A DNA stretch of 63,991 nt, counting the filler, from Reclinomonas americana ATCC 50394 (Eukaryota), in the NCBI GenBank assembly GCA_048213135.1. It is 19 parts of 19 records of this genome, joined end to end, with 100 filler letters (N's around TTAATTAATTAA, not from the genome) between each part and the next. Parts side by side here need not be neighbours in the genome. Positions count along the whole stretch, not along the records: positions 42,241 to 53,279 come from AFZH01024192.1; 18 more parts are not named here. The stretch is one strand, 5' to 3'. The notes under the pieces are model-generated. The model searched no databases and was not told the origin of the DNA. It saw nothing but the letters and a program-made list of their open reading frames with translations. Of the stretch, positions 42,141 through 62,298 are shown piece by piece (the first letter of the stretch is position 1; each line of letters begins with the position of its first letter). A program made the position numbers and the translations under genes.

Positions 42141-42240
42141 NNNNNNNNNNNNNNNNNNNNNNNNNNNNNNNNNNNNNNNNNNNNTTAATTAATTAANNNN
42201 NNNNNNNNNNNNNNNNNNNNNNNNNNNNNNNNNNNNNNNN

Positions 42241-42842
42241 CGGGGAACGGATCATCGAGAATGACCGTGTGCTTGATGCGAATGTTCTGCAGCGGCCGCT
42301 TCTGCTCGTCGACCATGGCCATGTTGAACTTGTCGAGCACCTCCAGACCCTCGGCGACCACCGCAAACACAGGATGCTTCTCGTCGAGGTACTCCAGGTG
42401 GCGGTCGGTCAGCTGAATGAAGAACTGCGAGCCATTGGTGTTGGGACCGCGACTGGCCATCGACACCAGGCCCTTCCTGTCGTGTCGGATCAGTGATGGC
42501 GCGAACTCATCCTCAAAGAACTTGGCCTGATCGCCATACAGCGACGCATACACCGACTCGCCTCCTGAGCCAATCATCATCATCATCATCAGTCCACATG
42601 CAATGCGCCTTTTGTGACACACTCGCACACACTTCTCTCTTCTGCGACCGCGCCTCACCTTGTCCAGTGCCTGTGGGATCGCCTGCTTGTGCGATAAAGT
42701 CGGGCTCGACGTAGTGAAAGAGCGAGTTGTTGTAGCGCTTGGCCTTGCACAACTTGAGAAAGTTCTTGGTGGCGATCGGGCACTCGTCGACAAACAAGTC
42801 GAGCACGAGCTCGCCAAACGTTGTCTCCAGCAGCACACTCAT
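42241..42842 (-). CDS. PPIL4: Cyclophilin PPIL4/CYP59, N-terminal part
   Basis: [17 protein letters not shown]...NFLKLCK...[15 protein letters not shown]...NGSQFFI...[15 protein letters not shown]. Confidence 0.95.
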
Positions 42843-42931
42843 TCTGCTCGGCGTGCAACAAAGGACACGGACAACTGTTGTAGTGCATTTATAAAAGTTG
42901 CATTGTTTCTTGCGCGGCCGGCCACGATGCT

Positions 42932-45900
42932 CAGTATGCTGGTGGAGGTGGTCGGCGTTGTGGTGGTGCAGCTCGTGATCGGGCCGGTGGTGAGACGCCG
43001 ACCTACGATGCACAGAGTGAGACGATAGAGAAGGTCAACGTCGAACGGAGGTGGTGGCACTGACCGTGGTTCCGTTCCACAGTGGCACCACCGACCGCGG
43101 AGAGTGCGCGGGTGCTGGTGGGCTCGTTGAGCGCACCACTGAAAAGTCGCCAGCAAGGCTCTGTCGTGCCTTTCTCACACTCTGCACAAAGAAGCAATCA
43201 GCACGACGTTGTCTTCCTCCCGACATCACCGCCTGCAAACCTCAATGTGGTAGCTGCTGTCAATGAGTTCCTTGAGTACTCTGCGCACTGCCTCCTCCCA
43301 TGAATGCGCCAGTGCCTCCGCGTAGTGTCGTTTGCCCTCTGTTACCGCGGTGACAGAGTGCGCAAGTCGCGAGTTCTCCTCCGCCAGCGATGCCAGTCTA
43401 CGTACGAATTAAAATCGCTGCGCACAGTGACATTCGAGGGGAGAGACATTACGCACCTGAGCGACATCTCCTCCATGACGTCGTTCATGCGCTTCTCCAT
43501 CACGTATTTGAGCCGGGCATGCTCCTGTGCCACGGCCTCGAGTGTGCGCTGCAGCGTGTCGGGATCGGTCCAACCACTGGACTCGATCTTGGCCTCCTGC
43601 AGCTGCTTCTTGATTTCCTCGCGATTGCGATGCACGTCCGACAACAGTCCGTCCAGCGCCTCCACGCGCTCCCGCAGCTCCTTGATCACCTCATCGCGCT
43701 CCTCGAGCGATTTGGTGGCATCGTCGCCGCGTGCAGCGCGCACCAGTGCCCGTTCGAGTGATGTCTCCAGATCGGCGGCCCGCTGCGACGTGCGCTTCAG
43801 CTGCTCTTCCACCCTGCCGCGAATTTTGTGATGAGTGCTCCACTCTACAAAAAACAAAGAACATCACGAATGAACGCACGATTCGAGTCGATCCGTGGCC
43901 TCGTCTCGCTCCTTCTCAGCCTCCACCAAGAGGTCCTGTAGCCGCTGCACCTCGACCATGACTTCCTCGGCCTTCTCCATCAAGTGATCGCGCTCTCCTT
44001 CTGCCTTGCGTGCTGCCGCCGAAGAATCGGCCAGCTGCTGATCGCGCTGATGCATCATCTTCACCGCCGAGTCGAGCTCGCGTTCCAGTTGCGCCACACG
44101 CTCGCTGTTCTGCAGGCGCACGGTGACCAGTTCGTTCTGCACTCGCCGCAAGTGCTCCTGCAGGTCTTGTTTCATTTGCTCTGTCAGGGTTATTCTGCGT
44201 GGCAGCAGGTCAGCACTTTGGAAAAGCCAAACGACGTTCTGTTTGTGACGCAACTCGGTCGACAAGTTGCGCTCCTTCTCCGCCAACTCCGAGTACGCGC
44301 CCTCATATCTGGCCAACTCGGCACGCAACGCCGACGAGTCGGCGTCGCTGGCCATCACCAGCGAGCGCGACTCGTCCATTTCGCCAATGGCCTTGAGTAG
44401 CTCGCTGCGCAGCATGTCCCGCTCCTGCTCCACTGCCTCGAGCTTCTCGCGCAACTCGGCCTCGACCTGGTGCGGCGGCGGTCGATTGGGCGGCTGCCGC
44501 CTCCGGGGCGAGAGCGAGGAGCGACTGAGCACGTCGGCCAGCTCCTGCTTGCATGACTCGTGTTCGCGCGAGATGCTCTCCAGCTGCAGGCGCGCATTGT
44601 CGAGCTCTTGCGTGAGGTCCATGCAGCGGACCTGCCAGCTGTCCACCAGCAAGTTGGCATCGCGAAGCTCCTGCGTCACCTCCTCGAAGCGCGTACGCCA
44701 GTGCGATTCGTGCTTCTGCGCCGAGTCCTGCGTGTCTTGCAGGTTGCGCTCGACATACTCGGCCCGCTCCCGCAACTCCTGCATCTCGTCTTGCAGGACC
44801 GAGTTCTGCGCCCCGCCACGCACAGTAAGCAACCCGCATGGCAGGGAAAAGGAGGGGGAGGGAAGGGGGCACAAACCTCCAGGCGAAGCGCATTCTCCTT
44901 TTCTCGCCACTCGGCGGCGTCCGACTCCACCGCCGCCAACTTACTCCTGTGCTCACGTTGCTGCTGCACCATGGCGTCCTCGACCTCACGCATCGTGACC
45001 TCTGTCACCGACATTTGCTGACTGAGCGACTCGTGCAGCTCCTTGACGTGGTCCTTCAGGCTGGCATTGGTCTGCTGCGCCACCAGAAGCCGATCGCGCA
45101 AATCTCGCACCACCGGGTCCTCTACGCTGCTCTCCTTGCCCGCATTGCCATACTTCTGCGCAACACGCACGCACGCGTGTCATGTACCAGCGGCGCAGCG
45201 AGACACAGAGACGCAGTTGGTGCACAAACCTGCGTTATCGTGTACATGAGCTGGAAACACTCGGCCTCGATCTGCGTGACCGTGTCGACCACCGCCATGG
45301 CATCGTTCACCGTCCGCGTCTGCTGCGCCCTCTGCGTCCTCCGTGTCAACTCCCCACGCAGCGCCTGCAACCGCGGCGGTGACGACGACGACGACTCCCC
45401 GTGCTGCAACGATTGCGCCTGCCGAAACACCTCATCATGCCGCTACACACACACACACACACGTGAGCAGTAAGACACACAGTACAGTCGCTGTGTCAGC
45501 GCACCTCCATTGACTGACTCAACCGCGACGCCGATTCCACCAGCGGCTGGACCGCGACACTACAAAGACGGGCCCGACATGCATTACCAACTCACCGCTC
45601 ATTTCCCCAACACACACACACACACACACAATCGCAACACACACATGCACATACCCGTCACCACCACCAGCGCTCGCGCCAATGAGCAGCGGGCGCGGTG
45701 TCTCCGGAGCGGTGCCACTCACTGGGCGAAAGGCCGGCGGTGGTGAGTCGTCCTCGTCCTCGCTCAACGCAACTGCTGCGCTGCCTGTGTCGCCTTCCTC
45801 TCCGCCTTCGCCACTACCACCTCCGCCTCGCTCGTGTGTGTCAAGCAGACGCGGGCGCGGAGGCGGCGGAGGCGGTGCCGGCGAGTCGGCGTCAGACCGC

Positions 45901-45959
45901 TCGTCCGCGCTGCTGTACGAGTACTCGTTGGAGTCGTACGCTGAGCGCAGAAGATCCAT
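42932..45959 (-). CDS. Long spliced coiled-coil protein (3' end approximate)
   Basis: ATG 45959 MDLLRSAYDSNEY...; several Glu/Gln/Leu heptad exons. Confidence 0.7.
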
Positions 45960-46129
45960 TCCTCGTTGCTTGGTCCTTCTCTTTTAGCGCAAGACACGGC
46001 CTTTTCGTTGCACGCACTCGGGCAGCAAGTGAGAAAGACCGCGCGCCTTCGTTCTTGCTTTTGTCCCAATTATGTGATTTTCGAACACTGACTGTCGAGC
46101 AGCTCTCGTTTTGTGTCAGTGTTGGAGTC

Positions 46130-48666
46130 ATGGCAGTGTCGAGTCCGAGTCAGGCCGGCTCTGTGGGTGTGCACTTGGCACTGTCGCCGACGTCGCATGT
46201 GCTGCCGACGGCCAGGTAACAACGCACGCGCGCTCGCTCTGTGTCTGTCTCTTTGTTGGCGACTGTTGACGGTTGTTTTTTCTGTGATAGCATCCCGCTC
46301 CCGTACGAAGTCACAACGCAGTTCGTGCCGCTGTCGCCGCCGCTGTCGATGGAGCAGCTGCGGAAGCGGCGGTTGAAGCTGCAGGGTGAGTCGCACGCGC
46401 GCGGATCAGTCCGCTCTGTCTCGGAATCGCTCACTCTTTGTGTGTTGTGCAGCGGGGCATCTGAACAGTCGTCCAGAGTTGGACCCGAAGCCACCGACGA
46501 GTGGCCCGAGTGGGCGACCGCCACAGCAGAAGCAGGCTCCAGCAAAGGCGAATGAGGGAGGTGAGGCGGTGCAGCCGACGCCTTCGCCGCGACCGCCGGC
46601 GGAGAATCCACCGCAGCGATCGCGATCGTCGTCGCGAAAGCCGCAGCAGCGGAGGAGAAGAGGGAAGCGAGCCAAGAATGAGCTGACGCCGCGGTTGAGT
46701 CCGCGCGAGAAGAAGTCGCCGAGGGAGTGGCGCGTGTACTCGTCGTCGTCCATGTCGTCGGGATCTGGCGACGATGATGATGGCGACGATGATGATGGAT
46801 GGGGATCGCTGTCGGATGATGGTGAGGAGGCGACGGGTGCGACGTATGTGGAGCGGCATGGTGGCACGCCGTACTTTCTCGGGCATGAGCTGGCCGCGCT
46901 GCCGCTGGTGCAGGGACAGCCGGCATTGGAGGTGACTCCTGATCTGTGGTGCTTTTCTTCCGCTCGAGATCTCTCACGTGCGTGTGCGTGTGTGTGCCAC
47001 ACAGTCGGCACGGCGAGCGTTGGAGCGATCGACGCCGCGCTCCATGACTCTGGACAGTGCTCGGGAACGCGAACTGCGCATGTCATGGCGCGAGTCAAAG
47101 GAGCTGTACGGTTTCCTGGTGGGCTCTCGCTACAATAGTCCGCGCGTGGTGGACCGCCAAGCAGAGCGGCCGATTCGATGTGTGGCCACGCGACGACCGG
47201 CCGTCGCACAAGACGTCAAGCCGGCGCCGGCGGTGCTGGAGGAGGCCAGGAAGCGACGCAATTCGCCGCCGCTCTCCGCTCGCCTCCGACACGCGCACGA
47301 TCGGCAGAATCAGTCGTTCAGTGAGCAGGTGGCACGCACGGCGCGTGGCTTTGGTCACAAGCGCAACTCGACCTCGGCTCCGTCGCTGCTCGCTCGCGCC
47401 GCCTCGCAGCGTCTCAATCGTTCCGAGTCCTACGCTTCGACGGCGGAGCAATACCATGCCGGTGGCAGTGCGTTCCAGTTGCGCGACGACAGCCCTTCGT
47501 CCGACACGCAGCAGCAGCAGTCGCCCACGTCGCACGTGTTTCCGGCGTACATGGCCATGGAGCGCGTCATTGACGGCAACGGCATTGAGCGTGTGTGGCC
47601 AAACAGCGTGCTGCCGAGCAACGTGCGCAAGCGCCAGGCGTTTTCGAAAACCGTGCGACCACCGCCACCGCAACCCGATTTCATGCTCAGCGATGTCTTG
47701 CATGGTGCGTCGCGCAAATGTTGCCATGATTCTTCCGCCTCCTCCTCTGTGTCTCTCACTCTTGTGTTGGCGCGACAGCGATTCCCATTCACCGGCGCGG
47801 CACTGCACCGTCGCACTCGGCATCGATGCAGGTGAAGCCGGCCCGACCACCGTCGACCACCATGTTGTCGCCGACTGGCGCACAGCCGCGGCCACCCTCG
47901 CGTACCGCCACACCTCGCTCCGCCACTCCGCGTTCCGGAAACGGTCTGCGCTACTACCATCGCTCGCATCCGAGTGAACCGCTGGGCGAGTGGAGTGGCG
48001 TGGCGAACCAGGCGGCGGTGGAGAGCGATGAGTTGCCGGATTCACTGCTGCGAGCCATGCACGATCTGCCCGAGTCACTGATGCCACCGCGGCAAGTCAC
48101 CCCTCCACCACCACCTCCGTTCTCCGCCTACAGCAGTGTCGGTGGCGGTGGCCTGACCAGCAGTCGCTCGGTCAGCACGCGCACAACACCACTTCCGTTC
48201 TCCGCGTCGCCCAATGTGGATCCGCTGATGGGTGGTGGTGGTGGTGGTGGCGGAGGTAGCGGAGGTGGCGGAGGTGGCGATCCGCGCCCGCCCAACTCGA
48301 GTCGCTCGGGGCGGCTGTCGGCGCCGCCTGCCGAGAGCGCACGGTTCCGCACATTTACGCCGCACGACGCCACCGTGTGGACTCGCACGTTGGCTGGACC
48401 AGGCGCGCCGGGGCCCTCGGGAAATCGGGAGTATGTCAAGGCAGTTTCGTGCTGAGAGTGTCTCTTCACAGTTGTGCTTCTTCTTCAGGTGGTCTCATTC
48501 GGCGATGCACGCGCAGGATCTCTTCTCAGAACTGCAGACGACCATCACTGATGTGCTTCCGCACAATCCCGCGACGGTCACACGGACGCAGAATGTGTTC
48601 CCGGCGCGATCGTCGTCGAGTGCCAGCAACAAGCCTGCGGAGTTTAGGTTATCGTGGCGCAAGTGA
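46130..48666 (+). CDS. Spliced Ser/Pro/Arg-rich hypothetical protein
   Basis: Successive coding-like segments with GT-AG introns; ends ...PAEFRLSWRK*. Confidence 0.6.
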
Positions 48667-49475
48667 AGGCAGGGGGAGGATTATGTTGCTTTGAGTGTGC
48701 GGGGAGGGAATGGGTGAGCTGCATTTTTGGTGTAGATTGAGAGGGCAAGACATCTACTTGTGCTCACAGCAAGGAAACTTACCTTGTGGTTGTCATTGCT
48801 GTGTGTGTCGGCAAGTTCTGTGTTCTCAGCACCGACGTCGTTCAACTTGGCGACTGAAGTCTATCGTGGTCGAGGCTTGTGCGTTTTGTGTGTGTCTGGT
48901 CATGTCATCAAACAAACAAACAGGAATACCGCCGTGTTAACATGTTGGCAATGGCATGGAGAATTCTTCACTGAGGTAACACCACTGAAGAAGAAGAAAA
49001 AACGGCAGGCATATGAATTGTCGAGGGGAAAAATAGGAAGTGATGTACATGTATGAATAAAATTCCTGGGGGAGTAGAAGCCATGAAGAGCGGACATCGG
49101 CACACAGAGAAAACGAGAGTGAAGCGCCCACGATGAACAGCGTAACACTCGCGCTGCGATCATTCGTCGCAAGTGGAGTCAACGTCAACATCCGGCGCAA
49201 ATTAATACTGTAATCCGGCAGTCGATGACGAATCATCGACATCGTCGTTCATCGCGCGGGAGTACGCGTACTGTCGTCGCGATCGACAATAAATACTGAA
49301 TTCAGAGACGAACATATATACACTGATGTGGACGCACAACTAGTACGGTGGAGTTGGTTGGGCAAACTCGAGCATGCACCAGCGCCGGAATTCGGAGCTG
49401 CTTAATCACCGCAGCGCGCGTGCATCAGTTCTAATTATCGATAGTGGAAAGCAGGAAACAACCACGCAGTGTCAC

Positions 49476-52400
49476 TCACTCATTCAACCGTGCTCCCGTC
49501 CCGAGGTTGACGAAGCCGTAGGCGAATTTCGCGAAGGCGTGAGATCGTGACAACCGAACCAGAGTGCGATGGTCGACAGTCGGCAAAGGGTTGGCTGGGA
49601 GGCCACATTGCACGAGCACATGAGGGAACGTGATGTTCGTGCCCTTAACCGTGGATCCTTCTCGTCCGAAATTTTCTTCTTTGTTGAACAAGTAGTCAAA
49701 ATTCCTGAGCAGCCATGTTTCCAGAGTCTTCGCGAGACCTGTGTTGCACGTGCACCACGATATAGAATTCGTCACAAGTGTCGTCAGCAATGCGTCATTT
49801 GACACAGCGATATCGAACAACAACGATTAACATTGCATACCTGCACCAACTCGCAATAGTTCGATCGGCTTCGGTGCGGCTGGTGACGAACGCCACCGCC
49901 AGCAAAACACACTGTCAAACGTGACCCAACGGATCACGACAAGTCGCTGTCGACCGTGTACCACACCGTGCACACGCGAAATGTTGATACCGGTACCGGC
50001 CAGGACCATCTGCTTGATGAGGTAGTCGAGGACGGCGTGGTTCGACCCCGACGCAATCCGGCTGCGCAAGTCACGTGACTGCCCGACATACACAGCCCGT
50101 ACGCGCTCACGCAGAACTCGATATTGATATTCCTGCCCTGCCGTCTCCCGAGACAACACAGTGCCATCGACTCGGATCTCTCTCTCATCATCGCGCAAGT
50201 GCCGATTGCTCAGTGGCTCAACTTCGGCAAGTCCAATTTCGTAGACACCAGGCACGTTGCGTACAAAGCGTCGAAGTCTCGCATCTGAGACTGTCATCCA
50301 GTCGCTGAACAATTCTTCCAAGTCAGTTGGAAGGCAGCAATTGTGACGACGAGTAAGAACTGCATCTGCAGTCGTCACTGTTAGCCAGTTCGAATTCTAG
50401 CTTTTCTCATGAATCATTCGGTCACATACCACGACTGTTCAGGAGGTCCACTAAGTCTTGAGCAGTCATTGCGAGCCCAGCCAGCAGAGCTTGACGAAGA
50501 GGAGCAGGTGCACGCACCAATTGCAGCTGCGTCACAGCGTCGTTCACATCATTGCCATCCATCTTGGCGAAGAATACGTCAAGAAAATCGCGAGAACTGA
50601 GCGGCAGCAACGGTGCATCTTTTCTTGACAGACAATGCCCAGGTCCTGGACACACAAAAGAAGTAACCGCTCTGAGTTGTTTGTCGACGCGTGTGAGATC
50701 AACGCGGTCGCCAGTTGACATTGTATCGGCGTCCATGATGAAATTGTCAGCAAGATTGACGACGTAGTTGTACGAGCGCAGCAAACGACGTTCGGCGCAG
50801 AAAGCAAGCGCCGTGGCAATGTGGCCCTTTCCGAAATCCAAATACCGAATCATCTACGGAGAGTGCATGCCACCATAGTCAACAGCATAATGGCAGCATC
50901 TTAGTGAGTTGACAGAAGTATGCAACCGTACAGGTACGACAACGAACCAGTGTGCCACAAGCAGGTTCTCGAAATCCTGCATTAATATTTCGGTGCTCTT
51001 GCACACGCCTGGCCAGAGAGTTTGTAGCGCCGACGTACAGTGGGTGGACGTTGCTGCATGCTGGCAAGCGCAAACCTGCATGTACATGTGCAAAGACGAC
51101 CGGAGCACAAGGTTAAGATCCAAATCTCCAAACAGAAAAAACAATGCAGCGCACTCACTGCTCGCTCTATAGTTACCACATGTACATGTGCATGTATACT
51201 TCTACAGTGGATCACGAGACGAGGTAACCCTCACCAATCTCGTACACACAAGCTCGATCCACCCTCGAAAGCACGTTACGATTGCCATGCAGTTGTACCC
51301 ACTCCGACAATGCGTTCTGAAGTGCAGCAGGGAGATCGCACAATACGCGATCAACTGTGAGCTGCAGCTGCTCCCCACGCATGCACACATCGCCACCGGC
51401 TGTGTTATTGGAGAAAGTAAATGAGCAGCAGCGGATCCGGAGGTGACAGAAATTGCAGACGAAAGGAACAACCCTTAAGCTTCTCTTGCCGTACGTACCG
51501 CGCATTTCTGGATCCGCTCCTTCCCCCGCTTGCATGAATTCTTCGCACATTGCACTCTCGCACCCAGCCCGTTCCAGAATCGACATCGCATGTGCATCGT
51601 AATCGAGTTGCTGGAGACAACGAGTCGGCCACTGCAGCAGTGTCTGCTCGCGATCGGGTTGCAGCTGCAGCGCACGATCGGCAGTGGAAAGTTGTGAAGA
51701 TGTTGCTGCAGCTGATGTTGTGTGCTTGTCGCCTACTCGACGTCGTTTCTGTGCCGGCTGTCCCTCCAGAACCTCATCCAACAAGCCACATGCGCACCTG
51801 GTTCGATAGAGAAGATCACTCCACACCGGCCTCAAATTATCAAGAGACCACTGTCTCGATTCAAATGGAACCGGAGGTGCTGCGGCTAGCATGAGGCGTT
51901 GTGTGAAGATAACCATCCTGCGATACAGAACACCCTCGATCCCCGACGAGTGGTACACCCCGGGCCTCTGGATCTCCATGAACTCGTTGTAGAGGTACAC
52001 GGCGTGATAAAACAGGTATTGAGTGTCAACAGCATTCTGGCACTTCCACAAGCTGTCCGACGCTAGCCTCCGGCTCCACTCCAGCCGTTTGAGAACTTCG
52101 TATTCGAAATATGCCAGTCGCACTTTCTCCGGAGTTTGCTCCTCATTCAAAGAATATATCATCTTGTATAGCCATTCGCTAACAGCCAGCACGTTTCCCA
52201 CGAGCTGGTCAAAGTGGCCTGCCATTTGCAGCACAAGAGGGAAAATGTATACGTAAGTTGATCGCGATATCGATGGTGCACGTGTGGCCGCGCGCGTGCG
52301 GTATCGGTATCACATGCAAAGATCTAGAACACAGTACATGCGCAGAACGCTAACAAACAAAACAATGTACATAGCAACAGCAGCACCAACCTTCCAGGTC

Positions 52401-52867
52401 AGGGTATGCGATGCGCATCGCCCTCAAAATACCCTGTGCTCGCTGGTGATCACAAGGAACCTGATCAAGAAGCCGCGTGACGTCGCTCAACGCTGATCAT
52501 TGAAATCTCACGTAAGCAAGCACACACACGCATTGCGACACTGCAACATCAGCGAGCATCATGTGTAATTTGCACGTGATGCGGCCAACAAACCTTCTGC
52601 ATCCAGCTCCTCGGGGGTTTGCGATGGAGCATCTGCACGATGACGCTTACGACAAGCGCTGATCATGATCATGAAGCTGCTCTCAGTCCGGATACTTTCG
52701 ACCTCGCTGTCGCAAGCCACCGGGGACTGACGGGGCCCACCAAGCACATTTTCTATGCGCCACTGAGTGGCGTGTGCGGGGCAGCAGAATGGAAGGTCGT
52801 ACGTGCTGACTTCGTAGTGGGGAAGACCGCAGAGAGTGCATGGCGCATCAGCAGAAAAAGCTGACAT
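49476..52867 (-). CDS. Spliced protein with two tandem ET-like GIY-YIG nuclease domains and a possible N-terminal Cys/His motif (termini uncertain)
   Basis: Domain 1: LSEW..CVYEIG|L..LYVGATNSLARRVQEH..|MIRY..AERRLLRSYNYVVN. Domain 2: FSDW..PGVYEIGL..VYVGQSRDLRSRI..VIRW..|LETWLLRNFDYLFN. Phase-compatible GT-AG introns at 51234-51076, 50947-50854, ~50429-50366 and 49840-49739. Confidence 0.82.
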
Positions 52868-53135
52868 GAGATGCACACAGCGTAGTATCGGAGCGCGAAT
52901 GACTGGGGGACGCGGGATATGTGACGTCATCAATATTCACGCGTTGTTTATCACTTCGCCCATCATTGGAGGACAGGTCACACTTTTCTGACTCTTTCCC
53001 CCTGAATCATTCTCCAACTCACCACAGGCGATTAACGCTTTGTGATACTTCGATATCTATCGAGAAACGGCTACAGGACAATCATGACTCACCTCTCCCA
53101 CAAACAACGCGCGCGCGCGCAATCATCCACCAGAG

Positions 53136-53279
53136 ATGGGCGACGCGCTGGACCTGATCGTCTGCGGCGACTTCTCCGGCGTGGTCGACTCAGTGTTCCA
53201 ATCCGCGCGCTCGGCCCTTCTCGATGAGTTCGAGGAGTGGCCGGATCGCGGCAATGTGCTCCAGATGAGACTCGCTGCG
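53136..53279 (+). CDS. 5' fragment of hypothetical protein
   Basis: ATG ORF with coding-like codon usage running into the gap. Confidence 0.35.
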
Positions 53280-53599
53280 NNNNNNNNNNNNNNNNNNNNN
53301 NNNNNNNNNNNNNNNNNNNNNNNTTAATTAATTAANNNNNNNNNNNNNNNNNNNNNNNNNNNNNNNNNNNNNNNNNNNNTCTGCTCGACGAGCCCCTCCT
53401 CACCCCGGCCGAGTGACTGCGCCAAATTGCGAAGCCCTCTCCCATGGCCCGGGCCAGCCCCGGGCCATGTCCGTTTGCAGCCCCAACCAAGCAACATCCG
53501 CGTCGGCTGCTCTGGGCTCAGCGCCGTGCGCCGCAAGTTTGCCGGGATCCTCGACGACTGGGTAGATTATCGAGCGGCCGGTCGGCCTCACAGGGAGTG

Positions 53600-54244
53600 A
53601 TGACCGCGATGCAGCGCCAAAGAGCATGTGGAGCGAGGTCAGTAGTTATGCTGGCCGCACTCGTCTTCGGGGAAGCGGCCAGCGGTCCCGTCTTTGCGGC
53701 ACCGGTCACGCAAACGATCGTCCTGATCCGGCATGGCGAAAAGCCGCCCGGCGGGCTGGGCCGGCTCGATTGCCGGGGATTGAACCGTGCCGAGGCGTTG
53801 CCGCCGGTGCTGGCGAGGCAGTTCGGCCGCTTCGACGCGATCTTCGCGCCCGACCCCGATCGGCAGAAGAAGGACGAAGGGATCAAATATCCCTATCTGC
53901 GCCCGCTGGAGACGATCACGCCGCTGTCCAAGGCGACGGGCCTGCCGGTCGAGACACGCTTCGGTTACAAGCAGATCGGCAAGCTCGAAGAGGCGCTGGA
54001 ATCGCCGGGCTATCGCGGAGCCACCCTCCTCGTCGCATGGGAGCACAAGCAGCTGGTCAAGCTGGCGCGCGACCTGCTCGACCACAATGGCGGCGATCCT
54101 CGCCAGGTCGGCAAATGGCCGGGCAGCGATTTCGACAGCATCTACGTCGTCAGGATCGTCCGTGACGGCGAAGGGACGCGCGCGACGTTCGAGCATGGCC
54201 ATCAGGGCCTGACAGGCAAGCTCAGCGCCTGCACCGACGGCTGA
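53600..54244 (+). CDS. Secreted histidine phosphatase superfamily protein
   Basis: Signal-peptide-like N-terminus, IRHGEK, RPLETITP, VAWEH, WPGSDFDSI. Confidence 0.85.
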   Translation: MTAMQRQRACGARSVVMLAALVFGEAASGPVFAAPVTQTIVLIRHGEKPPGGLGRLDCRGLNRAEALPPVLARQFGRFDAIFAPDPDRQKKDEGIKYPYLRPLETITPLSKATGLPVETRFGYKQIGKLEEALESPGYRGATLLVAWEHKQLVKLARDLLDHNGGDPRQVGKWPGSDFDSIYVVRIVRDGEGTRATFEHGHQGLTGKLSACTDG

Positions 54245-54289
54245 CGATCGCCCGGCGTACGCAAAGACGGAACCCGGTCGGAAGGCTGC

Positions 54290-54751
54290 TCACCCTTGCA
54301 GCATGCAATCCGCGAGACTGTAGCAATGGCTCGCCTGGTAGGCGTTCCGCCCCGTCATATGCGTCAGATTGAAGGTCCGGATGGCGCGCAGGACCCCGGG
54401 TGCAGCAAGGAAACCGCGGATCGAGGCTGGGCCCCGCACAGTGATGCCGAACATATCCGCGCCGCCCGGCACGAAATAGCTGACGTCTTCGGGCCTCGCG
54501 ACGCAGCTCTCCAGAAAAGCTTCGTCCACATGCTCCTGCATGGACGAACCGTCCCTCGCGACATCCGACAGATGCACCAGGAAGAGCGCGCGGATGCCCT
54601 CGCCATCCGCATAGAGCGTGAAAAAGCTCCATCCAGCTCGCATTGAAGCGGGCGAGCGCCTTGTCGGAGGTCGACGGCAGGCAGGATACCGACCAGTCGT
54701 GACGCTCGCTCCGTCACGGGACCGGGATGCAGCTGCGGCCGTGTCGCCCAT
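54290..54751 (-). CDS. Hypothetical bacterial ORF or gene remnant
   Basis: 153-aa ORF with no recognisable motif; N-terminus looks non-coding. Confidence 0.25.
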   Translation of the reverse strand: MGDTAAAASRSRDGASVTTGRYPACRRPPTRRSPASMRAGWSFFTLYADGEGIRALFLVHLSDVARDGSSMQEHVDEAFLESCVARPEDVSYFVPGGADMFGITVRGPASIRGFLAAPGVLRAIRTFNLTHMTGRNAYQASHCYSLADCMLQG

Positions 54752-54895
54752 GACATCAGCGGCTCGGCTCGCTCAGCATCCAGCGCCTACAAGTTCCCGT
54801 CAGCGCGTTGGCCGAACGTGCCGATCGCGGACGATCTTGCCCAGGCCGATCGGCGGCATTGGCACGCCCCTTTCGGGGAGGGTGATCAGCGACGA

Positions 54896-56280
54896 TCAGG
54901 CCGCGTCCTTCCATTTCGGCAGGGCGTCGCCATGGGCGGCGATGAGCTCGTCGACCATGCGCCTCGTCTCCTGCAGCGACAGCACACTCGCTGCATGGCG
55001 NNNNNNNNNNNNNNNNNNNNNNNNNNNNNNNNNNNNNNNNNNNNTTAATTAATTAANNNNNNNNNNNNNNNNNNNNNNNNNNNNNNNNNNNNNNNNNNNN
55101 CGCGGTGGACGCGCTCGCGATCGCCGTCGAGCGCGGCGCGCACGGTCAGGTCCTGGACGAAGACATGGGGTGCGCAATGCGCCGCCAGTTCCGGCGGCAG
55201 CGTCCCGGCATGGCAGGGGCGCAGGCCGTTGCGGTCGACGATGACCGGCACCTCGACGCAGCAGCCCTCGGGCAGGTTGTCGATCAGCCTGGTGTTCTCG
55301 ACGTTGCCGTAGATCACCGTCGGCTCGCCCGTGACCATGGCGCGGATGATCAGGGAGCCATACTCGTCGCTGCGCTCCAGCGGGAAGTCCTCGCCGGCCA
55401 GGAGCTTGCGCCGCGTCTCGGTGTAACGGCCGAGATTGCGGATACTGCGCCGGACATATTCGTCGACCGGAACGTCGTATTCGGCGATCTGGTCGTCGCG
55501 GCGCAGGAAATACGGGGTGTACTCGGCATTGTGCTCGCTGGATTCGCTGACGAACCAGCCCAGCGTCCGCATCAGCTCGAAGCGGACCTTGTCCCTGGCG
55601 TAGATCTCCGGATCGGCCATCGCCCGGCGCAGCGCCGGATAGGCGTCCTTGCCGTCGATCTGGAGCTTGAGGAACCAGGTCATGTGGTTGATGCCGGCAC
55701 AATCATAGCTCAGCCTCGACTGCTCGACGCCGAGATAGCTCGCAAGATCGCGGGCCGTGTGCTGGACGTTGTGACAGAGGCCGACGACGCGCTGCTCCGG
55801 AAAGGCCTTGTAGACCGCCCAGGTCAGGATGCTCATCGGGTTGGTGTAGTTCAGCAGCACCGCGTCGGGGCAGAGCTCGCGCATGTCGGCGACGAGATCG
55901 AGCATGAAGGGGATGGTGCGCAAGCCGCGGAAGATGCCGCCGATGCCGACCGTATCGGCGATGGTCTGCTTCAGCCCGTATTTCCGGGGTATGTCGAAAT
56001 CGAGCAGCGTCGCCTCGTGCATGCCGATCTGGACCATGTTGATGACGAAGTCGCAGCCCTCCAGCGCGCGGCGACGGTCGAGATGTTCCTCGACGACCGC
56101 ATCGGCGCCGAATTGCTGCGCCGTCCAGCGCGCCATCATGCCGCCGGTCTCGAGCCGCTCGGGATCGATGTCGTGCAGCGAGATCACCACGCGCCCGAGC
56201 TCGGTGAAGTTCAGGATGTCGGTCAGCAGGTTCTTGACGAAGACGGCGCTGCCCGCGCCCATCATGGCGATCTTGACCAC
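54896..56280 (-). CDS. melA: GH4 NAD-dependent alpha-galactosidase (spans gap)
   Basis: KIAMMGAGS, QTIADTVGIGGIFRGLRT, NYTNPM, GLCH, AGINH, ESSEHNAEY; C-terminus ..VDELIAAHGDALP in the neighbouring contig. Confidence 0.93.
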
Positions 56281-56336
56281 GGTATTGTCCTTCTCGAAAC
56301 GTCGAAACGGGTCGGCCCGCGCTCTTGCGCGAGCGG

Positions 56337-57182
56337 TTACTTGAGGCCGGAGCCGGAGATGCCCTGGACGAAATAGCGCTGGAAGAAGGTGAAGATGATC
56401 AGCATCGGCACCAGAGAGAGCAGCGCGATCGCCATGATCATCGACCATTCCGTGTTGAACTGGCCACGCAGCAGGTTGAGGCCGAGCTGCACGGTGTACA
56501 TCTCGTGCTTCATCATCACGATCAGCGGCAGGGCAAAATCGTTCCAGCGCCACATGAAGGTGAAGATCACCAGCACGGCGATGATCGGCTTCGACAGCGG
56601 CACGACGATCTTGAAGAAGATCTTCAGCTCGCTGGCACCGTCGATGCGGGCCGCTTCGAGCAATTCGTCGGGGATCGAGACCATGAACTGGCGCACCATG
56701 AAGATGCCGAAGGCCTCGGCTGCGCGCGGCAGGATGACGCCCCAGTAGTCGCTGAGCAGGCCGAGCTCGGAGACCACCAGGAAGAGCGGCACGATGATGA
56801 CCTGGAACGGGATCATCAGCGCCGACAGCACGGCGAGGAAGAGGATGTCGCGGCCGGCGAAGCGGAATTTGGCGAAGGCATAGCCGCAGAGCAGGTTGAT
56901 CGTCACGGTGATCACCACCGCGAATACGGTGATGATCAGCGAATTCGCCGTCCAGCTCAGGAACGGCACGCGCCCGATCGCATCGGCGAAGTTCTGCCAG
57001 ACGAAGCTCGACGGGATCAGGCCGGCGGCGCCGCTGAAGACTTCGTCCTTCGGCCGCACGGCGGTCGCGAACATCCAGTAGACCGGGAAGAACATGACCC
57101 CGGCCCCCGCGACGAGGAGCAGCCAGATGCTCGTGGTCTCGAGGCGCCCTGACAGGGCGCTGCGGCTGGTTCCCGCGATCAT
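56337..57182 (-). CDS. Carbohydrate ABC transporter permease (MalG-like)
   Basis: TM helices and EAA loop ELLEAARIDGAS. Confidence 0.95.
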   Translation of the reverse strand: MIAGTSRSALSGRLETTSIWLLLVAGAGVMFFPVYWMFATAVRPKDEVFSGAAGLIPSSFVWQNFADAIGRVPFLSWTANSLIITVFAVVITVTINLLCGYAFAKFRFAGRDILFLAVLSALMIPFQVIIVPLFLVVSELGLLSDYWGVILPRAAEAFGIFMVRQFMVSIPDELLEAARIDGASELKIFFKIVVPLSKPIIAVLVIFTFMWRWNDFALPLIVMMKHEMYTVQLGLNLLRGQFNTEWSMIMAIALLSLVPMLIIFTFFQRYFVQGISGSGLK

Positions 57183-57192
57183 GAAGGCGCCC

Positions 57193-58149
57193 TCATGCCA
57201 CGTCCTCGACCCGGCGATTCACTCGCCATTGCAGCAGGGTGAAGATCAGGATCATCACGAACAGGACCATGCCCATGGCGCTGGCATAGCCCATCTCGGA
57301 CCCGACGAAGGCAGCCTGGTAGATGTACTGGACGATCATCGTCGTCGAGAAACCGGGGCCGCCGCCGGTCATCACGTAGATCAGGTCGAAGACCTGGAAG
57401 GAGTGGATCACGCCGAGAATCAGCAGCAGGAAAGTGGCCGGCCGCAGCAGCGGCCAAGTGACGAAGCGGAACTGCTGCCAGCGGCTGGCGCCGTCCATCT
57501 GCGCGGCATCGTAATAGGTCGGCGAGATCGACTGCAGCGCGGCGAGATAGACCACCATGCAGAAGCCGATGCGGACCCAGAGCGAGGTGACGACCAGCGA
57601 GAACAGTGCCCAGCGCGGCGAGGACAGCCAGGCGACCGGCCCGATCCCGACCTGTTGGAGCAGCGCGTTGATCACGCCGTAATTGTCGTTGAAGAGCCAC
57701 GCCGCGATCACCGCCGTCGCCACATTGGAGATCACGACCGGCAGGAAGAAGACGCTGCGCAGGATGGTGCGGCCGTAAAGGTCGCGGTTGAGGGCGAGCG
57801 CCAGCACCAGGCCGATGGCGAGGCTCATCGGGACCGTGGCGATCGAGTAGACCGCGGTATTGCTCAGCGACTGCCAGAACAGCGTGTCGCTCGCGAGGCG
57901 AGCATAGTTCTCCAGCCCGATATAGCGCGGCGTATCGATCAGGCTCCATTCCCGCAGGCTGATGTAGAACGCATAGAGCAGCGGGAAGAAGACGAAGACA
58001 GAGAACAGCGCCATGTTCGGGGCGATGAACAGGTAGGGCGTCAGCTGGCTGCGTTTCGCCTGCAGCCAGTAGCGCCGCGCATCGGCCGCCGAGGGCCGGC
58101 CGACCGCCGGCCCTCTCAGGTTTTCCGCGATGGCCATCACCGCCGCCAT
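57193..58149 (-). CDS. Carbohydrate ABC transporter permease (MalF-like)
   Basis: TM helices, YDAAQMDGASRW, MTGGGPG. Confidence 0.95.
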   Translation of the reverse strand: MAAVMAIAENLRGPAVGRPSAADARRYWLQAKRSQLTPYLFIAPNMALFSVFVFFPLLYAFYISLREWSLIDTPRYIGLENYARLASDTLFWQSLSNTAVYSIATVPMSLAIGLVLALALNRDLYGRTILRSVFFLPVVISNVATAVIAAWLFNDNYGVINALLQQVGIGPVAWLSSPRWALFSLVVTSLWVRIGFCMVVYLAALQSISPTYYDAAQMDGASRWQQFRFVTWPLLRPATFLLLILGVIHSFQVFDLIYVMTGGGPGFSTTMIVQYIYQAAFVGSEMGYASAMGMVLFVMILIFTLLQWRVNRRVEDVA

Positions 58150-59509
58150 CAGACCAGCAGCGTCGAGCGCACGTGCTTCTCGATGTTCGCGACGGTCGCA
58201 GTTGGCGACTGGCCGGAGGTGAAGGCAAGTTCAAGCTCGTCGGCGAGCTTGGCGTTGAAGCGATCCCAGGTCGGCAGGACGATGGTGCTGACGAGATGCT
58301 CCGGCACGGTCGCCGACTGTTCGAGGAAGACCTTCATCTCCTCGTTGCGGATGTCGTAGACGAGGCCCTTCTCCTTCAGCGATTTTCGCACCGGCAGGAA
58401 CTGCGCCTTGGTGACGAACTCGCGCATCGCCTCCTCCGCGACCATGAACTTGACGAAGTCGGCCGCGACGTCCGGGCTCTTGCTGTCGCGCGAGACCGCC
58501 AGGGCATTGCCGCCGAGATCGGCCGCCATTGCCACGTCGCGCGGCAGATAAGTGACGCCCCATTTGAACCTGGCCTGCTCCTGGATGAAGGGGATCTGCC
58601 AGTCGCCGTGGAGCAGCATGGCGATCTTGCCGGTGGCGAACAGATTCTGCACCGGCTCGGAACTCTTGAGGGAGGTGTTCGGCGGGACGAGCCCGTCCTT
58701 GAACCAGCTCTGGGTCCAGGCGACAGTCTCGGCCGCCTCCTTGGTGTTGATCTGCGGGCCCTTGAGCTCGTTGTCGAGCAGCTGGCCGCCATGCTGGTAG
58801 AGATACATCAGCCAGCGATAGGCGTTCGAATTCTGCCAGTTCATCGCGAAGGCGTAGTTCAGCCCGGCCTTCTCCTTGGCCAGCTTCGCGGCGCCGATGA
58901 ACTCCTGCCAGGTCCAGCTCTTGTCGAGGCTTTTGGGCGCCTCGATGCCGCAGGCCTCGAAGATCTCGGCGTTGTAGAACAGCGCGAAGGTGTCGGTGTG
59001 ATGCGGCAGCGCATGCGGCTTGCCCTTGATGGTCGAGGCGCGCCAAACCGAAGGCAGGAAGTCCTGGCCGAAGCCGGCGTCGAGATATTGCGACAGGTCG
59101 ATCGCCGCGCCGCTCTGCCCATAGCGCCCGATCCGCTGATACTGGGCGCGGAAGATGTCCGGCGCCTGCTTGCCGGCGAAACGGGTGTCGAGCTGCTGGT
59201 AATACTGGCCGCTTGGAACCACCTCCAGCTTGATGGCGACGTTGGGATTGCGGGCCTTGTACCGCTCGATCTGCGCGTTGAAGGCGGCGATCTCGGCGGG
59301 CGAACCCCAGGAGGTCATGGTCAGCGAAGCTGCCTTCTGGGCGTTCGCGGCGCCCCAATACATGCCCACTCCCNNNNNNNNNNNNNNNNNNNNNNNNNNN
59401 NNNNNNNNNNNNNNNNNTTAATTAATTAANNNNNNNNNNNNNNNNNNNNNNNNNNNNNNNNNNNNNNNNNNNNGGTCTTGAGGAAACTGCGCTTGGTGAT
59501 GGTCGCCAT
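58149..59509 (-). CDS. Sugar ABC transporter substrate-binding protein with Tat-type signal (spans gap)
   Basis: SD plus MATITKRSFLKT at 59509; SBP motifs APDIF, ALFYN, PKS..WTWQEF. Confidence 0.92.
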
Positions 59510-59558
59510 TGTTTCGATCTCCCTTGGACTTTTTTATCGTTGGAAGGCGGTGGCTGGC

Positions 59559-60635
59559 TCAGGCTCCCTCCCCGTCCGAGACGGTACGGACGCCGCCGCA
59601 GGATTCGCGCACCAGCAGGCGCACCGGCAGAACCTGCTCGCGCAGCGGCTCGGCCTCGCCCTCCAGCCGGCTGATCACCGCCTCGACGGCGAGCCGGCCG
59701 ATATCGGCGCGGGAATAGTCCACCGTGGTGAGCTCCGGCGTGACAAAGCCACCGAGCGCGATGCCGTCGAAGCCGACGACCGCCATCTCCTCCGGCACGC
59801 GCACACCATGCTTGCGCAGCGCGTGCAGCGCGCCGACCGCCATCTGGTCGCTGTAGACGAAGACGGCGCTCGGGCGTTCGTCCTGCGCCAGCAGCTCCTG
59901 CATTGCCGAAAAGCCGCCGGCGAGGCTCGGCTCCGCCATTGCGATGAGCCGAGGGTCGGCTGCGATACCGGCGTCCTGCAGCGCCTGCAAATAGCCGTCC
60001 GAGCGCTCGCGACGCTTCAACAGACGCTGCGAGGCGCTGCCGATATGGGCGATGCGGCGGTGGCCGAGATCGATCAGATGCCGGGTCGCGACATAGCCGC
60101 CCCGCTCCAGGTCGACGCGCACCGCCTGGAGCGCCGGGTCGGGGCTGTGGTGCTGCATCACCACGATCGGCATGCCGTTCTCAGCGAGTTTCTTGAGGTC
60201 AGCCGCAAAATCGGCCGGGGGAGCGGCGACGATGACGCCGTCTGCGACGCCGCCCGAAAGCAGCGAGTAGGCCCGCCGCTGCACCTCGTCGAACTTCGCC
60301 GACATGATGTTGAGCGAGTAGCCGCGCTCGAGGGCAGCGGCATGGGCGGCGCCGATGATCTCGGCGTTATAGAAGCTGTCCAGCGTATAGAGCAGCAGCG
60401 CGATCACATTGGTGCGCCAACGCCGCAGCGAGCGCGCGGCATGGCTCGGCTGATAGCTCAGCCGGGCGGCGGCATCGGCGACGCGCGCCCGCGTCTCGGC
60501 GGATATGCCGAGCTCTCCACCGCGATCATTGAGGACGAGCGAGACGGTGGTTCGCGAGACGCCGGCGAGCGCGGCGACCTCGGCGCTGGTGGGCCGGCGA
60601 CTGGCTCGCCCGTGCGGAAGCGCACGCTTCACCAC
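59559..60635 (-). CDS. LacI family transcriptional regulator
   Basis: HTH TSAEVAALAGVSRTTVSLVLN, HLIDLGHRRIAHI, VPEEMAVVGFD. Confidence 0.95.
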   Translation of the reverse strand: MVKRALPHGRASRRPTSAEVAALAGVSRTTVSLVLNDRGGELGISAETRARVADAAARLSYQPSHAARSLRRWRTNVIALLLYTLDSFYNAEIIGAAHAAALERGYSLNIMSAKFDEVQRRAYSLLSGGVADGVIVAAPPADFAADLKKLAENGMPIVVMQHHSPDPALQAVRVDLERGGYVATRHLIDLGHRRIAHIGSASQRLLKRRERSDGYLQALQDAGIAADPRLIAMAEPSLAGGFSAMQELLAQDERPSAVFVYSDQMAVGALHALRKHGVRVPEEMAVVGFDGIALGGFVTPELTTVDYSRADIGRLAVEAVISRLEGEAEPLREQVLPVRLLVRESCGGVRTVSDGEGA

Positions 60636-60659
60636 AGCTTTTCCATCCCTGTATTGTTA

Positions 60660-60675
60660 TCTAACACGATTTAGA
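60660..60675. promoter_or_regulatory. Candidate LacI-family operator
   Basis: TCTAA-CACGAT-TTAGA dyad with central CG in the AT-rich region just upstream of the regulator. Confidence 0.5.
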
Positions 60676-61284
60676 AGAAGGCTATGTGCGGAACTGTCTA
60701 TCTGTCAAGGCGGTCAGGACGGGAGCTTTTCGCCGCTGCGGAGACGCACGCTGGAGAACTCGTCCGGTGCGTGATCAGATCGGCAAATGTTCGGTCCCCA
60801 TCAATGCCGGTTCGCCGGCTGCGCCCGCGTACTGGCATCGCTGATGATCCAGCCCAGGCGAGAAAGCCCTATGTCAGGTACGACATCGACGGCACTGTCC
60901 GGCCGAAAAGCGAGTTACCAGACCTGAGGCTGGCTCCCGTTGTGGAGCAGGCTGCTCAGCGGGCGCATTCTCCGCTCCCGCAAAGCAGAGAGCGCCCTAA
61001 AGCCTCAAACGCGCCGATATCGTTGAAGAAGTCGGGTCCGAGCAGCCTTGCGTCTGCAGGCCGGNNNNNNNNNNNNNNNNNNNNNNNNNNNNNNNNNNNN
61101 NNNNNNNNTTAATTAATTAANNNNNNNNNNNNNNNNNNNNNNNNNNNNNNNNNNNNNNNNNNNNGAGAGAGAGAGAGATGAGAGAGATGAGATGCATGTC
61201 GGGCATTTCATCGTGTCCTTGTCGCGAACGCCAGCACCTCGAGCTCCTGGGTCTCGTGCTCTCCTCCCGCTCTCCTCACCATTC

Positions 61285-61779: not shown

Positions 61780-62241
61780 GTAGGCGGTGGACGCTCAGAA
61801 TGCACAGGCCTCTTCTGTGTCTCTCTCTCCCTTCTTAACGCACCTTTTCCTCTGTCTTCCTCTTTATCTCTCCCTCCTTCATGTGCCCTCAGTTTCATTT
61901 TCTCTCTCTCTTTTCGTCCTCACTCCTCTTTTGCTGACGCCCATCTCTTTCCAGTTCCCATTTTCTCTCCCTCCCTCTCTACTCTCTTCTATCTCTTGTC
62001 TCAGTCTAGATCTCTTCTCACCCTTTCTCTTTCTCTCTCCTTATTTTCTCTCACCTCCCTCTCTTCTCCTTCTATCTCCTCTCCCTCCCTTCTCTCTCCC
62101 TTCTCTCTCCCTTTTCTCTCCCTTCTCTTCTCCTACTCTTCTCCTTCTCTTCTTCTTCTCTCTCTCCTTTCTCTCTCTTCTATCTCTATTCTCTCTCCTT
62201 TCTCTCTCCTTTCTCTCTCCCTTGTCTCTCCCTCTCTCTCG

Positions 62242-62298
<57 letters not shown>

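Follow-up and report, generated by a model that had tools for sequence, protein, structure and literature searches.

A predicted spliced gene of Reclinomonas americana that may encode two GIY-YIG-type domains in a single chain

Introduction

Can a single polypeptide chain carry two GIY-YIG nuclease active sites? A GIY-YIG domain has one active site, and enzymes that use it cut both strands of DNA by sequential nicking (I-TevI), by oligomerising (some restriction enzymes) or with a second nuclease domain (UvrC). The question is raised by a locus of the protist Reclinomonas americana ATCC 50394, where a set of open reading frames (ORFs) on the minus strand carries two series of motifs that resemble those of GIY-YIG nucleases. 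The locus belongs to a window of 63,991 nt (the whole stretch of DNA that was analysed, composed of 19 contigs), and it lies on the largest contig of that window (42241-53279; 11,039 nt). Our preferred explanation, to which we give a slightly better than even chance, is a spliced gene with two GIY-YIG-type domains that arose by internal duplication, both with the catalytic residue set, and whose product would carry two active sites on one chain.

A predicted gene of five exons on the minus strand

The motif-bearing minus-strand ORFs, delimited from stop codon to stop codon, lie at 51212-52309, 50879-51112, 50422-50853, 49827-50396 and 49476-49826. The five fragments lie where the initial annotation had placed them, and they do join in frame via canonical GT-AG introns. 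The predicted spliced frame measures 2331 nt and has 776 codons, from an ATG at 52225 to a TGA, without an internal stop; its GC content at the three codon positions is 0.61/0.44/0.57. Exon 1 (52225-51235; 991 nt) opens with the ATG, runs through an orphan N-terminal region and ends within the first motif-bearing module (copy 1), of which it holds the motifs LSEW and CVYEIG. Exon 2 (51075-50948; 128 nt) encodes the YVG-x4-L-x2-R-x3-H core of copy 1, and exon 3 (50853-50430; 424 nt) encodes its MIRY strand and its Glu..Asn helix, followed by a linker of ~100 amino acids (aa). The second module (copy 2) occupies exon 4 (50365-49841; 525 nt), where CCLP..FSDW, GVYEIGL, EYQYRVL, a VYVG..R core and VIRW follow one another, and extends into exon 5 (49738-49476; 263 nt including the TGA), which holds its Glu..Asn helix and a tail of ~68 aa. 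The gene had previously been given a span of 49476-51320. Its lower limit, 49476, is the stop codon; position 51320 marks just the start of copy 1, and the open frame continues upstream to the ATG at 52225.

Each of the four predicted introns begins with GT and ends with AG. Intron 1 (51076-51234, minus strand; 159 nt, GTGAGG..TGCAG, GC 0.46) interrupts the VYEIG|L motif of copy 1. Intron 2 (50854-50947, minus strand; 94 nt, GTTCGT..CGTAG, GC 0.48) has an alternative donor, GTTGCA, 21 nt downstream. Intron 3 (50366-50429, minus strand; 64 nt, GTATGT..TGCAG, GC 0.44) features CTAAC ~18 nt before its AG, and its removal puts both copies into one frame. Intron 4 (49739-49840, minus strand; 102 nt, GTATGC..CACAG, GC 0.44) contains one in-frame TAA and has a weaker alternative donor, GTGTGT, 72 nt upstream. 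The GC content of the exons ranges from 0.52 to 0.56, so that every intron lies below every exon.

In-frame bridging by GT..AG is common by chance and therefore carries little weight on its own. The proposed introns are instead supported by the collinear order of the motifs across the exons, by the lower GC content of the introns and by the N-terminal module of copy 2, upstream of which its ORF contains no in-frame ATG: this module could be translated only if spliced to the upstream exon 3. The same contig carries a cyclophilin-type gene (42241-43034, minus strand; Pro_isomerase, E=5.6e-22) that is cut by the contig end. The contig is eukaryotic. The cyclophilin frame switches at a GTGAGG donor near 42665, and this break indicates that genes on contig 42241-53279 carry GT-AG introns. 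We lean, by a little more than a balanced judgement and jointly with the two-domain reading set out below, towards a eukaryotic protein-coding gene of the minus strand that begins at 52225 or further upstream and ends at 49476, with short spliceosomal introns, five exons (six if an additional intron is removed) and a product of ~743-776 aa.

Two collinear copies of one module

Copy 1 covers 50755-51340 in genomic terms (minus strand), which corresponds to aa 296-406 of the 776-aa model. From its N-terminal end it presents LSEW (51310-51299), CVYEIG|L (51250-51071, interrupted by intron 1), the YVG segment LYVGATNSLARRVQEH (51040-50993), MIRY (50853-50842) and the Glu..Asn segment AERRLLRSYNYVVN (50796-50755). 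Copy 2 covers 49683-50339 (minus strand; aa 524-708) and presents FSDW (50309-50298), GVYEIGL (50249-50229), the YVG segment VYVGQSRDLRSRIASGSNH (50093-50037), VIRW (49937-49926) and the Glu..Asn segment LETWLLRNFDYLFN (49724-49683). An alignment of the two copies with MAFFT keeps all motifs in the same order, and copy 2 differs from copy 1 by insertions of ~37 and ~20 aa.

Three non-overlapping, collinear segments were each tested separately by local alignment of copy 1 to copy 2 against shuffled sequences. The N-terminal module (C-x-LP..L....S-x-W..VYEIGL) gave a local score of 53, equalled by 2 of 2000 shuffles; the YVG segment scored 33, a value reached by 1 of 1000; and the Glu..Asn segment (LA....E..LLR...Y..N...NF) scored 52, which none of 1000 shuffles attained. 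The two copies of the motif series, already noticed in the initial annotation, are thus real and not a product of chance. When the spliced model was compared with the whole window by tblastn, copy-to-copy cross-matches were confined to this gene, and no paralogue was found on the other contigs. We conclude from these alignments that the two copies derive from an internal tandem duplication. A third, degenerate copy (VSEW, PGVY) was considered within the first 290 residues and rejected, as 824 and 723 of 1000 shuffles equalled the observed scores.

Profile comparisons point to the GIY-YIG superfamily

Pfam scans were made exon by exon. Exon 2 matched PF01541 (E=0.0019; 18.9 bits, cut-off 22.6) and exon 4 matched PF19239 (E=0.0026; 18.0 bits, cut-off 21.4) over profile positions 46-90. 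A match of exon 5 to PF19239 (E=0.25; 11.5 bits) covers positions 134-157 of 163 and is collinear with that of exon 4; exon 3 alone had no Pfam match. The NCBIfam UvrC model matched exon 4 below its cut-off (E=0.02) at its N-terminal positions 21-78, and scans of NCBIfam and PHROGs yielded nothing beyond this. The Atlas language-model search of exon 4 gave 30 matches, with scores from 0.93 to 0.91 among the matches listed. In 23 of these 30 clusters there was no Pfam family, and the other 7 carried GIY-YIG Pfam tags at scores of 0.91-0.92: PF01541 on 12-17% of the members in two sets, and PF20815 on 100% in one set.

We also built a hidden Markov model (HMM) from 50 GIY-YIG regions of 61 bacterial genomes, of which the 48 with YxG..R in frame were kept (L105 and L107 were dropped). 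Its 1388 targets comprised the spliced protein, 1000 shuffles and the 387 ORFs of the window with a length of at least 80 aa. The spliced protein scored 34.6 bits (E=1e-9 among the 1388 targets) in two domains, at aa 336-380 in copy 1 (20.6 bits) and at aa 590-636 in copy 2 (11.7 bits). The exon 4 ORF reached 15.2 bits (14.6 bits for its domain alone), and the remaining targets stayed at or below 5.0 bits. A sub-profile of the small-protein type gave 20.9 bits for copy 1 and 12.3 bits for copy 2, and one of the UvrC type gave 0.2 and 13.6 bits, respectively.

Profile-profile alignment with hhalign assigned copy 1 a probability of 83.6% (P=8e-6) over 64 columns, which begin at the YVG strand, include the MIRY strand and reach the Glu helix; the score was 36, and the best of 200 shuffles reached 19.6. 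Exon 2 alone gave 91% (P=1e-6). Exon 3 extends the copy 1 match to 59-65 columns, through the Glu helix, and adds almost no score. All matches from the curated libraries lie below their cut-offs, yet they fall in the same superfamily and on the same part of the domain, and what the profiles point to is GIY-YIG and nothing else. From this agreement we regard the GIY-YIG identity of the modules, and with it the GIY-YIG fold, as probable rather than proven.

Candidate catalytic residues and the first strand

Both copies contain Y-[IV]-G followed by an Arg ~10 residues further on, in helix 1 (LYVGATNSLARRVQEH in copy 1 and VYVGQSRDLRSRI in copy 2), and PF01541, PF19239, our own HMMs and hhalign align the two YVG segments to the same part of the profile. 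E-x11-N is likewise found in both, and hhalign places the Glu of copy 1 on the Glu column of the family. The Arg-to-Glu spacing in copy 1 is 40 and the Glu-to-Asn spacing is 12, which fits R39, E76 and N88, presumably the corresponding residues of UvrC. The proposed Glu/Asn half of the domain rests on the motif, on the E-x11-N spacing and on its strong conservation between the copies.

The first strand is placed differently in the two modules. In copy 2, EYQYRVL (50112-50132, minus strand) puts a Tyr upstream of that of YVG at a distance of 11 residues, the canonical spacing, and is aligned by the profiles as the first strand; GVYEIGL lies ~51 residues upstream of YVG and is not the segment that the profiles align as the 'GIY' strand. 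In copy 1, CVYEIGL ends up 16 residues before YVG and is left unaligned by the profiles, and here VYEIGL may double as the first strand. [LF]S[DE]W and VYEIGL belong to a conserved N-terminal extension that is common to both copies. Of the complete catalytic set that had been assigned to each copy, the YVG Tyr and the Arg are supported by the profiles, the Glu and the Asn are present as the E-x11-N motif, and the 'GIY' strand of copy 2 shifts, according to the profiles, from VYEIGL to EYQYRVL.

A GIYxY variant with an additional Tyr is described for the bacterial GIY-YIG enzyme CMoRE (PMC12923530), and the 'YxY' of the EYQYRVL strand in copy 2 recalls this variant.

Comparison with ET/HRT proteins and other known systems

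The initial annotation had labelled the two domains 'ET-type'. FSDW and VYEIG motifs occur in ET proteins. The label could not be upheld. Among the Pfam models, PF19239, which we take to be the ET model, fits copy 2 best; it remains sub-threshold and matches from the YVG region onward only, and the FSDW/VYEIG pieces have no Pfam match at E <= 10. ET repeats were not matched by Pfam, and the 68-aa tail that follows copy 2 has one Cys. PF19239 had no match in any of 14 control genomes, nor in one Bosea genome. ET proteins combine Cys-rich ET repeats with one GIY-YIG domain and are described as plant-specific (PMC6585611). The likeness to ET/HRT proteins consists in a eukaryotic, apparently nuclear setting and a probable GIY-YIG domain. 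They differ in having one such domain and C-terminal Cys-rich repeats that bind zinc and DNA, whereas the predicted protein contains two domains and lacks such repeats. We file the protein as a probable member of the GIY-YIG superfamily, and not as an ET protein.

With the superfamily at large (PF01541 and its relatives, the UvrC N-terminal domain and YhbQ/UPF0213), the modules have the Y-V-G-x4-L-x2-R(-x3-H) core in common, and apparently also a strand with a Tyr ahead of it and a Glu that is followed by an Asn after 12 residues. Unlike the usual GIY-YIG proteins, the predicted chain contains two copies, each with an LP..[LF]S[DE]W..VYEIGL extension, and copy 2 has insertions. Homing endonucleases of the I-TevI type combine their nuclease with NUMOD, helix-turn-helix (HTH) or zinc-finger modules and reside in introns or intergenic regions of phages, viruses or organelles. 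No linked DNA-binding domain (NUMOD, HTH or zinc finger) was found in the gene by the Pfam and PHROGs scans, and, unlike in the I-TevI-type setting, its own coding sequence is predicted to be interrupted by GT-AG introns, on a contig that also has a cyclophilin gene. In the endonuclease of Penelope-like elements, the GIY-YIG domain is C-terminal to a reverse transcriptase; the 330 aa upstream of copy 1 match neither a reverse transcriptase nor any other Pfam family. Double-motif LAGLIDADG enzymes such as I-SceI provide an analogy of architecture alone, in that a nuclease domain which would otherwise require two copies or two successive cuts is doubled inside one chain and so creates a pseudo-dimer; their fold and chemistry are unrelated.

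Phrase searches of the literature returned, among the papers listed, no published tandem, double or duplicated GIY-YIG architecture. The sole published mention of 'two GIY-YIG domains' that they found concerns domains of two different proteins, and a search with the motif strings returned no relevant paper. What is unusual here is the combination of two diverged GIY-YIG-like copies, each with its own N-terminal extension, in an intron-bearing and apparently nuclear gene that has no detectable kin.

Evidence against the proposed gene and domains

Several results weigh against the explanation that we prefer. The solid part of the profile signal consists almost wholly of the YVG-x4-L-x2-R core of the two copies (~25 residues), and every exon, taken alone, stays below the Pfam gathering cut-offs (18.9 versus 22.6 bits for PF01541; 18.0 versus 21.4 bits for PF19239). 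By hhalign, copy 2 obtains a probability of 13.6% (P=0.002), and exons 3 and 5 alone give P values of 0.2 and 0.5. Within copy 2, the Tyr of the 'GIY' strand is ambiguous between EYQYRVL and GVYEIGL, and the long insertions (~37 and ~20 aa) might disrupt the fold. Among the four junctions, the second, with its GTTCGT donor, is weak and the least certain. A structure of exon 4 alone, lacking the last helix, was predicted by AlphaFold2 from the single sequence with a pLDDT of 51.5. Finally, none of the searches described below produced a homologue.

A Foldseek search of the exon 4 model against the Protein Data Bank (PDB) returned 0 matches at E <= 0.001, as is to be expected from so poor a model. 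A complex prediction that paired the exon 4 product with the N-terminal 50 residues of exon 5 reached 0.29, short of the mark of 0.34.

The sequence searches covered proteins, metagenomes and viruses. Exon 4 was compared by phmmer with 1.84 billion representative sequences, and the one match, a bacterial repeat protein of 2518 aa that aligned with query residues 59-84, was judged spurious. A word-index search with exon 4 among proteins of 306-2000 aa yielded 1901 candidates, none of them at E <= 0.001 or even at E <= 10. For exon 1, none of 2282 candidates among proteins of 181-578 aa reached E <= 0.01, no family was found in Pfam, NCBIfam or PHROGs, and the Atlas gave no usable match. Pattern matches in metagenome contigs (157 and 337) and in viral contigs (1 and 148) included 0 that were confirmed. 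The phmmer search of PDB sequences gave one irrelevant match (E=0.46). A tblastn match among phages (E=0.5) overlay a tRNA and was rejected.

Alternative explanations

The alternative that survives best accepts the gene and its duplication as real and holds that at most one of the two copies is catalytic. Its counterpart would then be a degenerate derivative of a GIY-YIG domain, with a role in DNA binding or in regulating the active copy, and the product a nickase or a structure-specific nuclease rather than an enzyme that cuts at two sites. The insertions in copy 2 and its weak profile support (11.7 bits with our HMM and 14% with hhalign) fit this idea, as does the preference of the copies for different bacterial sub-profiles (20.9 and 0.2 bits for copy 1; 12.3 and 13.6 bits for copy 2). 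It is harder to reconcile with the collinear retention of Tyr, Tyr, Arg, Glu and Asn in both copies, and with a Glu..Asn segment that is among the parts best conserved between them (score 52; 0 of 1000 shuffles). We consider this explanation unlikely, though it deserves to be kept in mind.

A second alternative, which we rate lower still, is that there is no single spliced mRNA. The locus would be the decaying relic of one or two mobile or virus-derived GIY-YIG genes, or it would contain two genes, and the 'introns' would be bridgeable frame breaks. GIY-YIG genes are often mobile (PMC1564403). Chance bridging by in-frame GT..AG is easy, exon 3 starts exactly at an ATG, and the searches found no homologue. 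Its base composition is a further point in favour: a sharp step in GC content near 48850 separates DNA of 0.60-0.65 (43.4-48.8 kb) from the stretch of 0.49-0.55 (48.85-53.0 kb) in which the gene lies. However, neither terminal inverted or direct repeats nor target duplications were found flanking this low-GC stretch, and other contigs of the window have a GC content of 0.52-0.54, so the lower value is not foreign to the assembly. The four gaps are also, without exception, lower in GC than the five exons, three of them have good donors (GTGAGG, GTATGT and GTATGC), and CTAAC precedes the AG of intron 3. In addition, each conserved segment of both copies has stayed in an open stretch and in the correct order, and the N-terminal module of copy 2 has no ATG of its own.

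That the modules do not have the GIY-YIG fold at all, and resemble it by convergence or chance as a lineage-specific duplicated domain of another function, is improbable. In its favour, every match to a curated library is below its cut-off, phmmer found nothing among PDB sequences, the fold model is uninformative and the profile signal is packed into ~25 residues. Against it, both copies match GIY-YIG profiles at the same profile positions, with 1386 decoys at or below 5.0 bits, three libraries and the language-model search indicate the same superfamily, and the Glu/Asn spacing fits.

Gene boundaries, neighbouring genes and the rest of the window

Exon 1 lies inside an open frame of 365 codons (51212-52309) and may not be the first exon. 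It contains the basic motif KRRRV (51734-51748, minus strand), which resembles a nuclear localisation signal, a function suggested by the type of motif alone. A stretch of 99 nt within exon 1 (51400-51498, minus strand; GTACGT..CACAG) is in frame and stop-free, pyrimidine-rich as DNA and Cys/Phe-rich in translation. It might be a further intron that creates a sixth exon, and its excision shortens the product to 743 aa. At the other end of the gene, a GTGAGT overlaps the stop codon of exon 5, for which reason a further 3' exon may lie beyond it.

Upstream of the gene, a small ORF (52562-52936, minus strand) contains a C-x2-C ... CC-x2-H pattern with a faint zinc-finger match (E=0.096); it might belong to the predicted nuclease gene as a 5' exon, or else stand as a gene by itself. 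A frame of 358 codons at 43864-44940 (minus strand), rich in Glu, Leu and Arg and with a weak IFT57 match (E=0.0054), probably represents a neighbouring gene with a coiled-coil product. Simple repeats occur at 61964-62298 and 45440-45654, namely (TC)n with ~178 copies and (CA)n microsatellites.

The 19 contigs of the window are separated by spacers of 44 N, a 12-nt linker of A and T only and another 44 N (for example, at 42141-42240 and 53280-53379), and blocks that are adjacent in the window are therefore not physically linked. Four blocks at 53380-61064 are bacterial, with a GC content of 0.64-0.66 and ORFs that resemble ABC-transporter permeases, LacI and family-4 glycosidases. A 440-aa ORF of one of these blocks shares 100% identity with Bosea vestrisii and 98% with another Bosea record, and the blocks probably stem from an associated or contaminating bacterium. 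The last contig (62399-63991) is one long, imperfect tandem array whose periods are 84, 150, 201 and 318 nt, with 81-88% matches, and both of its strands are open from end to end. A search of the window for tRNA genes found none.

Discussion

The predicted protein would begin with an orphan N-terminal region of ~295 aa that includes the KRRR basic motif, followed by copy 1, a linker of ~100 aa and copy 2. In each module, a family-specific extension (C-x-L-P..[LF]-S-[DE]-W..V-Y-E-I-G-L) would lie ahead of a GIY-YIG nuclease domain, and both modules appear to have retained the Tyr of the first strand, the YVG Tyr, the Arg ten residues on, the Glu and the Asn twelve residues later. Two metal-dependent active sites on one polypeptide would amount to a built-in pseudo-dimer, which, having both sites in one chain, could cut both strands of DNA without dimerising. 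Target binding could come from the orphan N-terminal region or from the extensions of the modules. Such a protein might conceivably work as the 'double nickase' of the initial annotation, with both sites active and opposite strands cut. The open frame, the duplication and the motif set are established from the sequence; splicing, expression, activity at both sites and any biological role are inferred.

On a bolder and rather doubtful view, the protein would be the founding member of a GIY-YIG lineage that has not been seen before: a duplicated, single-chain endonuclease with two sites and its own extensions, encoded by a cellular, intron-bearing gene. It could be a domesticated mobile nuclease whose present role, inside a protist nucleus, is to introduce programmed double-strand breaks or dual incisions.

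If the preferred explanation of a spliced gene with two GIY-YIG-type domains is true, a natural chain with two apparently intact sites would provide a test case for two-strand cutting by this domain, and might be used as a scaffold in the engineering of enzymes that cut both strands. If its nuclear setting and its introns are confirmed, it would also mean that a domain that is usually mobile or linked to repair has been duplicated and retained by a eukaryotic host.

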